Source: Perna viridis (Eukaryota). Taken from it: a DNA stretch of 64,000 nucleotides. How positions within the stretch are numbered: the stretch's first letter is position 1; each line of letters starts with the position of its first letter. The position numbers were made by a program, and so were the translations under genes. Shown in pieces: positions 18,996 to 29,930 of the stretch. The notes under the pieces are model-generated. The model did not search any database. It was given only the letters and a program-made list of their open reading frames with translations, and had not been told where the DNA came from. The stretch lies in assembly GCA_037379345.1 (NCBI GenBank), contig CM074516.1, positions 41,701,626 to 41,765,625 of the forward strand. Direction: 5' to 3'.

Positions 18996-21900
18996 ATGTT
19001 TTTAGTGGTGTTAAATATATGTGTTTTTCTTTTCTTTCACAATATTAAGGTAAGATTATTGATATTTTAAATATATTTTTTTAATTGATGTACTATACTA
19101 TTCCGTCATATTACTGTGCGCTATAGACCTTTTTTTTATTTTGCATGTCATTTATTTAACGTTGGGTGTTACTGCCGTAGTTTTATGGTGTATAAAACCC
19201 AAAAAAATATACAATGTCATTTATGTACATTGGTTAAAATCACTACTTAACAGGAATAATGCCATATAAAATGATGTAGTATGTTTAGAATAAGTGGTGA
19301 AATATCCCTTAAACGAAAACTAGTTAAAATTGTTGGTTGTAAATTTCGTTCTGTCAGAATAATAACATGTACCGGTAGAATGTACGAAGGGTACAGAACA
19401 ATTATATAAACGTGTACTGGTACAGTGTATGGTGAGTACAGAATAATTATATAAACGTGTACCGGTATAGTGTATGGTGAGTACAAAACAATTCTTAATT
19501 AATAGTTACTAATATTTTCTATGTTTTAGTGTTCCTACACACTAGATAGCAGAAAAGATGTGCAAATCAAAACCCAGTCACCAGCTTTCATGGACAAAAA
19601 ATCTAGTATTACAATATTTACAGAAACGCAAACAACTAATATGGATTTATCAATAATACCAAGCCATGATATTGCATCATCGCAGGATTTACCATCTTTT
19701 ATAACAGCTGCAGTAGTAACCTCAAATTTTTTAAGTGGTATTGTGCGTTTACCGTCATCTTTTGACATAACATTTACTGCTGATTCGAATATAATTGCAC
19801 AACCTGGCGAAACTTCAGTTACGACAACAAGAAATAACAATCAAACCTCCTTTTTTCATTGGAGTCAAACAAATTCTATGAGTAAAATGTCAATAAAACA
19901 AGATGCTTCAAGAAGGGAGGCAAACCAGATTTCATCTCCGTACGTAGGAACCACAGTATATGTAAATGTTCCGCCATCAACGCAACTCTTGGAATCAATG
20001 AAAGGCATGAGCAGTGAACAGGATTTAACCCAAGTGTTAAGGTCTGTCTATGAAACTACCATCCCGGTGATACCGTCTTCTCCAATATTCACCAGTTTTC
20101 CGCCTAACAACATTAACCTTACTCCATCTGAATTGCCTTTATTTAGCACAGTGATCCAAAGAACTAATCTACTATCATCGTTTACCCATGCAACACAAGA
20201 GTTTATAACTTCTCCAATAAAACAACCATCAACTGACATACAATCATCGCCTATCACGATTGTTGAATCTGGAATACCAACCATCCTTTCGTCTATTTCT
20301 AATGTACATGTAGCATCAGCAAATTCTATTGTGAAATCTCCAACGCAAACTAAACTTACTACATCAACATCATTACTGACAGTTGTCGAAACCCTGTCAC
20401 AAATACGTAGCGATGTATCTAAACTTTACACTAGTTCTTTACTATCAGGATTATCTTTTAGTGACGTATCATTACATATATCAACTAATATCGAACAATC
20501 CCTGGAATCACCAAGTTACCAACCATTGTCTAGTTTTACTAGTTATGTACCTTCAATCTTATCTACCGTTATTGAAGCAACAGGAATAGCGTCACAAAGA
20601 ACCTCGACAATTTCGACATCAATAATATCATCGCAACAAACGTCGATTTTCCCCACATCATTTGTACTTTCGTCACAAGAAACTCACATTATTCCAACAT
20701 TTACAATTTCGTCGCTGCCAACGTCGATAATTCCAACACCAGTAGCAAGTAGTGATTTGTTCCCAAAAAATTCAACTTTATTAAGTTCAGGAACAGTGAC
20801 CTCTATCAAAACGCCCATGTCATCCATAGAAACTTCTATATCGATTACCCCTGGTTTGCCATCAGTTCCGGGTATATCTCTAAGTATATTCTCCTCTGTG
20901 GTGCCACCGACCATTAGTTACCCTAATACAATAGAGCCAACAGCCAGCATTATAACAACACCAAGCACACCGACGATACCTACAACAACCGAAAGATTTA
21001 CATGTAAGTACTGGCTACATGTTAATGGGTTTTATGTATTAGTTTATATAATGTACATCTATGCACCCCTTTTAAACCATTTTAATTGCTATGGTCTCAT
21101 TGTTTATTGATTAAGTATACAATAACTAGCGATAGTAGTTCTTTGTGTAGCTGGCTTACTTCGTGCCCCATCCTTGATCTTTCTTGGATAATAATCAAGA
21201 AGAGAAGCAATTATACTTTAAACCTGGTTTAACTAGGTCCACATCCTTATTGTCTTTAATTGCCAGTAAGAACCTTGAAATGTTCTAATTGGTCATGGAG
21301 AGCATTTTCATTTCATTCTGAGAGAAAACCACCTGCTATGAAGTATTAGTTAGTGCAACTAAGATATGTATTCAAATAAAGGTAATACGTTGTAATGCCG
21401 AATCAATTGTAGAATCTTCAGGTACTCCACCCAAGCATTCAGGACGTTTATACAATAATAGGAAATAGCATGTTATACAAGGAAGTCTGGAATCTCCTTG
21501 GTGTCACTTGTCTCCTTATCTTTAGTTGACGTAAATAGTGCCCGGTCTTGGTTGGACAGAGATATGTATTTACACTCTGAAAACTTCCTGGAGTGATCTT
21601 GACCCTATTCAGTTACTTTGTTATTATACAGTATATTTTTTCTCAAAATCTTTTCCTTTTAATATACCATTAAAATAATTACAAATTACTATGTTCATTG
21701 AAAGAAATCAGCAAATCCTGCCTAATCGCCAATTTGTGTATTGCAATAACCTGCCATACACGTGTAAAAGACCGGAATTTACGCAGGAAACGATGCAATA
21801 TATGACTGTATTTACCTATTACACGGAGCATTATTTTCTGTCATCTTGCAAAATCATACAGACATATATATTTTGTATTTATTTTCTATACACTAATAGT

Positions 21901-27900: not shown

Positions 27901-29930
27901 CTACCTCCTGTGGCCTGACATGGGTACACCAGGGTGTACAGATTATATGCTGAGATTTGTACAAACTATCAGGGCTGACATTAGACCTGATATGACAGGA
28001 CCTATTCTAGTTCACTGCAGGTACTATTAGATTTAAACTAAGATCCGATCCAGTGAATTATATATATATATATACACAGTAGTTTTTATACCATAGGTAT
28101 GGTTCGTATTCAGTAAAATTACCTCGAAGGCTTTATACCAAGTTTCTATTGTCATTTTGTCTTGTATTTTTATGCGTATTACATTTTTATTCGCTTACCG
28201 TGTCATCTCAACACAAACCTACGGAACTCCAGGCATGTATTTTGCCCATTGCCGAATTATTACTTTCTTCTACCTTCTTTCATAACTCTTAGTTACAATG
28301 GGTTCAATTAATTCTCCTTTTTTTAACTTTTGCTTTATATGTTGTCTGACGATTTGTTATACGATAACCAAACCTACAGTAATCTTTATTACATTGCAAT
28401 ACCAACTGTTTGTGGAATAAGATTTACTAGGCACACTTCCATGTATTGTACCTCATTTATGTGTTACGCACATGAGCTATAGTTTTCGCGCGCGGTATAA
28501 ATTATTAGTCCTTTTCAATTTGTTTTAAAACTGATCTGCTGATATTTGACAGACACACTGCGTTTAAAGATTTACAACTGCTTCTGCTTCCGGACATCAT
28601 TAACTTTCTTCCAGTAGACATTTATTGAACACTTTGCTATAAAAATGTCGTATGTCTTTCAAGTGCTGGTGTGGGACGAACCGGAACGTTTATAGCACTG
28701 GATACCCAGATAAGAAAACTTAAAAGTGGATACGAACACGTTGATGTGTTTGGACAAGTTATGAGTTTGAGGGGATGTCGGTTAAATATGGTACAAACAG
28801 AGGTAAGAATAATGCCACGTGAATGTGGTCTTTGAATATTTTAGATGCCCACTAAGCAAACCAGACTTCAACATAACCATATTTCTTGAAACAAATATAT
28901 AGAATGAAAAAAATGTCCATGTGAGCATTAAAAAAGCAAACTTAAAATCCGTGCTAACAATGAAGAAATAGAAGAACAATAACAGCATCAACCAACTTTT
29001 TTTCAGAGTCAGTATGTTTACTTACATGAGTGTATACGGGATTATGTCAGACGAGTCAATCAAGATGACCCCTTTGGCGGAGAAAATACCGAACGTAAGC
29101 TATTAAAATTTGAACATGATGATGACTTAAATTCTCTCTCAAAAAAACAATTCAGAAACGCTCCGAATTAAATAAATGTTGTTTTTTTTTGTTTATTATT
29201 ATTATTATTATTTTTAATCTTATGACGTACTTGTTGTAAAGATTCTATAAATAAAGTTATTATTTTCCCGACATGTGATATCAAGATTTTGTTGATTAAG
29301 CTTTGTTTTTTTAAAATAGAGACCGGAAGTCCTCATGACTGTAATCAATGTCACTTAGAAATAGAAACCGAAAGTCCTCATGACTGTAATCAATGTCACT
29401 TAGAAATAGAGCCCGGAAGTTCTTATGACTGTAATCAATGTCACTTACAAATAGAGAACGGAAGTCCTCATGACTATAATCAAAGTCACTTACAAGCACT
29501 GAAAGTCCGAGTTCAGTCTTCAGGAAATTAACCGTAACATGGAGTAAGGATCTTAACTAGTTCCGTATCTTAACAAATACTCAAAGTCATAGCTCACATC
29601 TAAACATTTTGTCAAATTATGAATAAAAATATTTTAGTTTATTCAAAACTGTAAAAGGCATATTACTAAATAATTTTGTCAAATTCTGAAGACAAATTGA
29701 ATAATAGTTAATGTAAAACTGTCAAAGGCATACAGATATCAATTTATTAAACTTCGTTCATAACAGATTACACCTGTCCCGTATTACATATTTACACTTC
29801 ATTAAGCCGTCAACTCACAAGAAACGAATGGGGAGTTATGTGGACGATAAGGACGTCCTAACCTTTAAAAAACGTATTTATACTTTCAGAAATGTATGAA
29901 AATGTCAACATAGTGCAGTCAAAGTTTTAA
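18996..29930 (+). CDS. Receptor-type protein tyrosine phosphatase, single catalytic domain (R3 / Ptp10D-PTPRB-like cytoplasmic region) with mucin-like ectodomain, ~890 aa
   Basis: 13 phase-compatible exons totalling 2673 nt: 18996-19049 (signal peptide [18 protein letters not shown]), 19530-21003 (S/T/P-rich), 22610-22727 ([25 protein letters not shown]), 23675-23770, 24045-24126 ([21 protein letters not shown]), 25909-25999 (KNRYTNILP), 26229-26305 (DYINASY), 26615-26749 ([16 protein letters not shown]), 27401-27526 (KCEQYWP), 27869-28020 (WPDMG..VHCS), 28664-28802 (AGVGRTG..MVQTE), 29007-29094 (QYVYLH), 29890-29930 ([12 protein letters not shown]). AATAAA near 30263. Confidence 0.95.
19357..19492. 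repeat. ~45-bp tandem repeat, 3 copies (PTP intron 1)
   Basis: Unit aataattatataaacgtgtaccggtatagtgtatggtgagtacag. Confidence 0.85.
23045..23557 (+). mobile_element. Full-length ~510-bp retroposon (SINE-like) with structured 5' end and (CAAA)n tail
   Basis: Flanked by a ~14-bp TSD-like pair (cgtatacctgcaga / cgtatatctgcaaa); second full copy at 53011-53520; partial copies at 2823 and 8703. Confidence 0.85.
25175..25340 (-). mobile_element. Diverged Naiad-type PLE 3'-end fragment
   Basis: aagtaaatgagcaacc...aaaactggagcatggaccaggtgc...ttttctagaaacactcg matches 2380-2480. Confidence 0.65.
29314..29496. repeat. 42-bp minisatellite, ~4.3 copies (last PTP intron)
   Basis: Unit aaatagagaccggaagtcctcatgactgtaatcaatgtcacttag. 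Confidence 0.92.

Follow-up and report, generated by a model that had tools for sequence, protein, structure and literature searches.

A mussel receptor tyrosine phosphatase of R3 ancestry with a serine/threonine-rich stalk and no detected FN3 repeats

What is the purpose of the large ectodomain of R3 receptor protein tyrosine phosphatases (RPTPs), if not ligand binding? The question is raised in a review (PMC10815196), and the R3 definition itself includes multiple FN3 repeats in the ectodomain (PMC5336234, PMC10815196). Here, we report a computational analysis of a gene of Perna viridis that bears on this question. It occupies positions 18996-29930 on the plus strand of a 64,000-nucleotide stretch, hereafter the window (GenBank assembly GCA_037379345.1, contig CM074516.1, positions 41,701,626 to 41,765,625). 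From the letters alone, a first-pass annotation had described a leader, a single 1474-nt exon rich in serine, threonine, proline and isoleucine and nearly free of cysteine, a transmembrane (TM) helix, one protein tyrosine phosphatase (PTP) domain and a YENV…SKF tail, and had proposed that the FN3 array of an R3 enzyme was replaced by a mucin-like rod. We recover this layout in a 13-exon gene. Our favored reading, to which we assign a probability of about 0.55, is that the product is an R3-derived, single-domain RPTP without FN3 repeats, in which a 500-residue serine/threonine (S/T)-rich stalk would serve as a bulky spacer and not as a ligand-binding fold.

Gene structure, transcripts and the search for FN3 repeats

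Built from splice sites, the gene comprises 13 exons, all joined across GT-AG introns into an uninterrupted frame of 890 codons, and the encoded protein presents, in order, a hydrophobic leader, the stalk, a TM helix, a single PTP domain and the tail. Four of 24 listed runs were compared with window positions 16000-31000, among them three contig runs (X1, X5 and X7) from three studies. These three are labelled RNA by guess only; we take them to be spliced RNA because GT-AG introns are precisely removed from their contigs. A single 2886-nt contig of X1 carries all 12 junctions, from exon 1 through the stop codon and into the 3' untranslated region (UTR), and X5 and X7 carry 11 of the 12 each, the junction between exons 1 and 2 not being seen in either. 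The 3' UTR contigs extend to at least 30233. The gene is transcribed and spliced in the mussel. Raw-read run X24 has no reads over the exons of this gene or of its neighbor encoding a von Willebrand factor type A (vWA) domain, and says nothing on expression. The one continuous spliced contig rules out that separate mucin and PTP genes were fused by chance and, since it reaches the stop codon and the 3' UTR, a second PTP domain downstream as well.

The stalk is encoded by exon 2 (19530..21003; 1474 nt, phase 0 in, phase 1 out) and the TM helix by exon 3 (22610..22727; phase 1 in). The first-pass annotation had singled out the junction between them, 21003→22610, for a check against RNA, and the join proved direct in all three contig runs, with nothing in between and no FN3 exons in the transcript. 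Intron 2 is only 1606 nt long. None of 31 plus-strand reading frames located in introns 1 and 2 or in the gap upstream of the gene matched an FN3 family in Pfam; these were taken from 46 listed frames, the other 15 of which sit in intron 3, past the TM exon. A local FN3 profile, seeded from five paralogous loci and matching FN3 exons at each of them (by construction), gave a best E value of 3.9 over the whole window. Hidden FN3 exons are ruled out by the direct joins together with these negative scans; a minor FN3 isoform may escape the contig evidence because contigs drop rare forms. No FN3 repeat was found in the stalk, introns 1 and 2 or the orthologues described below, and the membrane-proximal PTP_tm domain (PF18861) is likewise absent, exon 2 running straight into the TM exon.

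Exon 2 contributes 491 residues, of which 20.0% are serine, 14.7% threonine, 10.8% isoleucine and 8.1% proline. Its sole cysteine is residue 19, at the end of the likely signal peptide, and residues 20-519 are free of cysteine. With 34% S+T, 8% proline and no fold detected, the stalk has the character of a mucin-type (proline/threonine/serine) segment and is likely O-glycosylated, judging from composition. It is hydrophobic for a mucin (I+L+V+F 28%) and contains no tandem repeats that we could find. It has no confidently predicted fold: a Pfam scan of exon 2 gave no match at E values up to 1, and AlphaFold assigned a predicted local distance difference test score below 50 to 491 of 491 residues (mean 32), a weak result given the single-sequence input. 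No stalk homologue at E 0.001 or better appeared among 7983 scored candidates (proteins of 861-2455 residues), which is weak evidence, and homology to cnidarian and sea-urchin stalks was not detected.

Exon 1 (18996..19049) carries the ATG and the hydrophobic leader, a likely signal peptide (residues 1-18), and its junction with exon 2 comes from X1 only. Hydropathy peaks at residues 1-19 (1.95) and approximately 521-544 (up to 2.7) mark the predicted signal peptide and the TM helix of a single-pass membrane protein. An in-frame TAG stop (18978-18980, plus strand) lies 5' of the ATG, and a TATA-like hexamer (18944..18949, plus strand), 47 nt 5' of the ATG, is a putative promoter element; the X1 contig starts at about 18997, close to the ATG. 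There is little room for further 5' exons because the minus-strand vWA gene has its start 706 bp upstream, at 18290. The introns hold repeats: two 45-bp minisatellites, at 19364-19493 (intron 1, 2.9 copies) and 29314-29492 (intron 12, 4.0 copies), and a high-copy repeat at 23014-23530 (intron 3) that many contigs and reads match.

The cytoplasmic part is spread over ten exons, their motifs named here by the usual PTP terms. Exon 4 (23675..23770) encodes the juxtamembrane segment and exon 5 (24045..24126) the R3-type segment RPVKL..F..H..ADS..FSQEY (residues 581-607), whose Protein Data Bank matches are PTPRB chains only, and weak (E 0.17-0.2). The KNRY phosphotyrosine-recognition loop (residues 630-633) is in exon 6 (25909..25999) and the DYINA motif in exon 7 (26229..26305). 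The core of the PTP domain follows in exon 8 (26615..26749; Pfam PF00102, E 3.3e-16) and continues in exon 9 (27401..27526). Exon 10 (27869..28020) holds the WPD loop (WPDM; WPD at residues 766-768) and the catalytic Cys801, and exon 11 (28664..28802) the P-loop SAGVGRTG and Q846; the ten-residue signature spans residues 800-809, and the Q loop includes Q846 and Q850. The end of the Q loop and the start of the tail are in exon 12 (29007..29094), and the coding part of exon 13 (29890..29930) supplies YENV (residues 880-883), the S-K-F end and the stop. Contigs cover all of these exons, and PF00102 matches all four PTP exons scanned (exons 8-11). With the KNRY, WPD, C(x)5R and Q-loop residues all intact, the phosphatase is predicted to be active. 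The spliced contig that runs to the 3' UTR and the single PF00102 stretch in orthologues both indicate one cytoplasmic PTP domain.

Orthologues in Mytilus and the conservation of the stalk

The first-pass annotation had called for mollusc orthologues of the same architecture, and these exist in Mytilus. Searched against 1.84 billion cluster representatives, exon 10 gave 304 matches, and among the best 150 one was full-length (82%), M. galloprovincialis LOC143048207 (XP_076077866.1), which clusters with M. edulis and partial M. coruscus proteins. Further full-length orthologue models come from M. edulis (CAG2222353.1) and M. trossulus. All share the layout of an S/T stalk, a TM helix, one PTP domain and the end YENTSMF, and Pfam found neither FN3 nor PTP_tm in them. 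Their automatic database names disagree, ranging from uncharacterized to PTPRO-like, PTPRA-like and PTPRB. No complete FN3-less orthologue outside Mytilus was present among the best 150 of the 304 matches or among 27 matches of 79 candidates; another orthologue search listed mainly two-domain PTPs, with something other than a Mytilus orthologue in 116 of the 120 listed rows, and says little outside Mytilidae. One partial protein, P0029, with a short T-rich stretch before the TM helix, was set aside, as it groups with clam proteins and not with the Perna gene. In the sequences searched, the FN3-less mucin-stalk form is thus found so far only in mussels (mytilids), and we found no paper describing such an R3 layout in a literature search that mostly did not cover subscription journals.

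The two ends of the protein are conserved in different ways. Between Perna and Mytilus, the PTP region is 74.7% identical and the TM helix with the juxtamembrane part 55%. The YxN tail motif, a putative phosphorylation site, is YENV in Perna and YENT in Mytilus, and an S-x-F end is kept in four of the four full-length Mytilus proteins checked. The class I PDZ-binding consensus is S/T-x-hydrophobic. The first-pass annotation read the SKF end as a motif of this class, a reading that is plausible in view of its retention in Mytilus; the motif is not distinctive, because class I-like ends occur in five of 21 other R3-like tails.

The Mytilus stalks are about 390-425 residues long, with 39-41% S+T and 0-1 cysteine; compared with the Perna protein, they are shorter, more acidic and richer in N-glycosylation sequons (9-13, against 3). 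Alignment of the Perna and Mytilus stalks gave z scores of 2.1 and 2.0 against full shuffles and of 1.3 and 1.5 against shuffles in 20-residue windows. As judged from these comparisons, the stalk is conserved in composition and kind, not in sequence. Such a pattern, with S+T kept at 34-41% across genera, would also be expected if the glycans themselves carried information: mucus or haemolymph lectins would bind the sugars of the stalk, cluster the phosphatase and switch its activity, with size being secondary. The sequons of the Mytilus stalks agree with glycan display of this kind, as does the inhibition of PTPRJ activity by dimerization (PMC9818648), whereas the Perna protein has only its 3 sequons and PMC10815196 reports no ligand for the glycosylated ectodomains of R4 enzymes. 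We regard this explanation as distinctly unlikely. We read the stalk as a spacer because a segment conserved in composition alone would have difficulty offering an invariant surface for protein binding.

R3 ancestry of the phosphatase domain and its paralogues

The assignment to R3 in the first-pass annotation stood up to phylogeny. We built a tree of 44 PTP domains, after 18 of the 62 rows of a quick tree had been dropped as gappy, long-branched or near-duplicate; the paralogue domains, assembled from tblastn exon matches, are partial, and vertebrates are represented by one pangolin and one lamprey protein. The Perna domain is nested among FN3-bearing single-domain proteins (clade support 100/99), and in the approximately unbiased (AU) test a grouping with two-domain outgroups, outside R3, was narrowly rejected (p=0.040). 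R3 ancestry of the PTP domain is supported by these sequence comparisons. We call the protein R3-derived and not a textbook R3 member because the FN3 repeats that define the subtype are missing. It shares with PTPRB, PTPRJ/CD148, PTPRH, PTPRO and Drosophila Ptp10D one TM helix, one PTP domain, the R3-type juxtamembrane segment, the WPD motif and the YxN tail, and differs from them in having neither FN3 repeats nor PTP_tm.

The closest relatives lie in the same genome. A search of the 723-Mb assembly with exon 8 gave 63 PTP-like places, and the best five besides the gene itself are all on the same contig, here C6, each with FN3-like exons upstream. In all, six R3-type genes lie on this one chromosome, at 8.4, 23.1, 26.3, 39.6, 41.7 and 47.2 Mb. 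Perna and Mytilus orthologues group together (100/99), then with paralogue D at C6:47.18 Mb (99/96) and paralogue A at C6:23.09 Mb (96/95); among the sequences sampled, this trio consists of mussel sequences only, and all of its members have the form WPDMG. The trio is part of a second R3 clade of protostomes (100/99), which includes sequences from cephalopods, chitons, gastropods, bivalves and scorpions, takes in five of the six C6 loci and stands beside a Ptp10D-like clade (joint support only 80/83). The Ptp10D orthologue is paralogue C (C6:26.35 Mb), which carries PTP_tm, and not the stalk gene; the regions ahead of the TM exons of paralogues A and D yielded no PTP_tm motif. Just downstream of paralogue C lie two single-frame genes for S/T-rich stalks with a TM helix and short tails (C6:26362667-26363302 and 26368678-26369265).

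The absence of FN3 is derived, because the closest relatives, D and A, carry FN3 arrays. The gene models of both were drawn from genome sequence alone. In paralogue D, 18 FN3-like exons precede the TM exon, nine and six of them in two near-identical series; of six submitted to Pfam, three scored above the cut-off and three below (E 0.0007-0.06). No S/T-rich frame was found in the 60 kb upstream of D, and several of its repeat units (C6:47098020-47168001) also hold a retroelement-like reading frame. Upstream of the PTP exons of paralogue A are two long S/T-rich frames (C6:23051165-23052610 and 23061905-23063434), the second of which enters an FN3-like segment, and its M. edulis orthologue (XP_071137869.1) has a 500-residue S/T stalk followed by FN3 repeats. 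Relatives from Pinctada and Potamilus have shorter T/S-rich N-termini. Paralogue A also contains a duplicated WPD-loop exon of WPDF and WPDM types (C6:23092443-23092592 and 23094194-23094343), and the two are possibly mutually exclusive, altering the catalytic loop.

These relatives modify the claim that a stalk replaced the FN3 array. That FN3 was lost holds, but the change may be one of loss rather than gain, because the Mytilus orthologue of A, like other relatives, has an N-terminal S/T stalk ahead of its FN3 array. On the simplest path, after duplication, the Perna copy would have lost FN3 cassettes from an ancestor with a stalk plus FN3. Most FN3 exons of R3 genes are cassettes of phase 1:1 (PMC5336234), and loss of such cassettes would keep the frame, because exon 2 ends in phase 1 and the TM exon starts in phase 1.

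Comparable ectodomains occur elsewhere among single-domain RPTPs. Cnidarian proteins (Sanderia P012834 and Hydra 'PTPRB isoform X4') combine a long S/T-rich N-terminus, a TM helix and one PTP domain with no Pfam FN3 match, but keep a cysteine-containing membrane-proximal segment (CNGPL motif) and branch far from the mussel gene; a shared clade was rejected (AU p=0.016), and in this tree the cnidarian S/T-stalk RPTPs are an independent parallel. Long S/T-rich N-termini, with no FN3 match in Pfam, also mark the cnidarian-clade single-PTP receptors P0121 (Sanderia), P0292 (Hydra) and P0315, on the R3 side of the tree, contrary to PMC5336234, which reports that no R3 was found in cnidarians.

The stalk as a spacer

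How would a phosphatase with such a stalk work? In the spacer reading, the enzyme would be active by default at the membrane, damping receptor-kinase or Src signaling; receptor kinases are the main targets of R3 enzymes, whose tail tyrosine recruits kinases of the Src family (PMC5336234). Docking of such kinases would fall to the YEN motif, and the S-x-F end may engage a PDZ scaffold. In CD45, 41 and 202 mucin residues add about 7 and 25 nm (PMC6170634), and scaling from these values, the 500-residue stalk would reach some 60-85 nm if glycosylated as densely. A stalk this tall would keep the phosphatase out of close contacts between cells or between a cell and a particle, and signaling would therefore start there. 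Size exclusion from immune and phagocytic contacts is described for CD148, an R3 enzyme, and for CD45 (PMC10815196), and Drosophila Ptp69D is excluded from Draper engulfment contacts (PMC6219719); by analogy, the stalk would place the mussel enzyme under size-exclusion control.

CD45 (PTPRC, R1/R6) is the nearest comparison for a mucin-like N-terminal part with size exclusion (PMC10815196, PMC6170634), but there the mucin part (41-202 residues) sits over folded cysteine-rich and FN3 domains and the PTP domains are in tandem, whereas the Perna protein has no cysteine in its stalk, no FN3 and one PTP domain. The R4 enzymes PTPRA and PTPRE resemble it in a disordered, heavily glycosylated ectodomain (PMC10815196) and differ in their tandem PTP domains and short ectodomains; the tree held no named R4 sequence. 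What is new, then, is an R3-derived RPTP with a stalk only, glycosylated disordered or mucin-like RPTP ectodomains (PTPRA, the mucin part of CD45) and the ectodomain-less PTPROt being already known.

Several observations weigh against the spacer reading. The tree contains no named PTPRB, PTPRJ, PTPRO or PTPRH sequence, and the AU test does not choose between D and A as sister (p=0.425 for A). The stalk differs in length between the genera, 500 residues in Perna against about 390-425 in Mytilus. No homology of the Perna stalk to the paralogue A stalks was detected (z at most 0.4, windowed shuffles), so that a new stalk exon is possible. A one-base insertion behind 19595, in an A run (19595-19601), stops the frame at codon 44; the sole X5 contig has it, and so does a fraction of the X7 depth (2.5 of 8.4). 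Because it lies inside an A run it could be an error, yet it is seen in two studies; the population may carry it as a null allele, and such an allele could mean that the gene is dispensable. Finally, low proline (8% in Perna, about 4% in Mytilus) and a high content of hydrophobic residues (24-28%) suggest that the stalk may be floppy, like that of PTPRA, and not a stiff rod.

The frameshift, present in two of three runs, and a stalk sequence no more conserved than shuffles would both suit a duplicate under relaxed selection, its stalk a linker free of constraint that remained once FN3 had been lost and only the catalytic part, tethered at the membrane, of importance, as in PTPROt, which has no ectodomain at all (PMC10815196). 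Against this stand an open, cysteine-free, S/T-rich stalk of 390-500 residues retained in Perna and three Mytilus species and a PTP region that is 75% identical with every catalytic motif intact, and we judge such relaxation highly improbable.

Low proline bears instead on a floppy glycocalyx element that would keep the enzyme monomeric and, with the PDZ-type tail, target it to apical epithelium (gill, mantle or foot), with no contact-dependent exclusion. The disordered glycosylated ectodomain of PTPRA has been called a floppy tentacle favoring the monomer (PMC10815196), and the S-x-F ends of the four Mytilus proteins fit such targeting. A further point is the neighboring gene. Arranged head-to-head on the minus strand (about 14080-18290), it has leader exons at 18253-18290 and 17874-17930 that encode a likely signal peptide, a vWA exon at 16486-17054 (Pfam E 3.5e-40) and EGF-like frames near 15000-15140 and 14070-14230, and it yields spliced contigs in the same three runs. 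However, these runs were chosen for containing the PTP gene, so that the co-occurrence is no evidence of co-regulation, and the stalk greatly exceeds the short R4 ectodomains in length. This, too, is an unlikely account, although one to be kept in view. Elsewhere in the window are fragmented retroelement-like frames (2761-5269 and 45108-46359, both minus strand) and a downstream minus-strand gene with long open frames at 33532-34098 (188 residues) and 36222-37220 (332 residues).

Returning to the spacer reading, the near-identical FN3 series of paralogue D also look like the product of selection for length. It is conceivable, although we lean well away from assuming it, that one ancestral gene gave rise to three paralogues with the same enzyme on three spacers, mucin plus FN3 (A), a long near-identical FN3 array (D) and pure mucin (the gene described here), all of them size-tuned, CD45-like gatekeepers of contact-triggered signaling in haemocytes or mucosal cells, independent of vertebrate CD45 and CD148.

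The scope of the finding is narrow, the form being found in mytilids only and mucin-like RPTP ectodomains having precedents in other subtypes. For the R3 family, the six R3-type loci on one chromosome and the second protostome R3 clade beside Ptp10D go against the single protostome R3 type outside flies given in PMC5336234. As for the question with which we began, an R3 enzyme that lacks folded outer domains and has kept its long stalk in both Perna and Mytilus makes it possible to test directly what the ectodomain is for.

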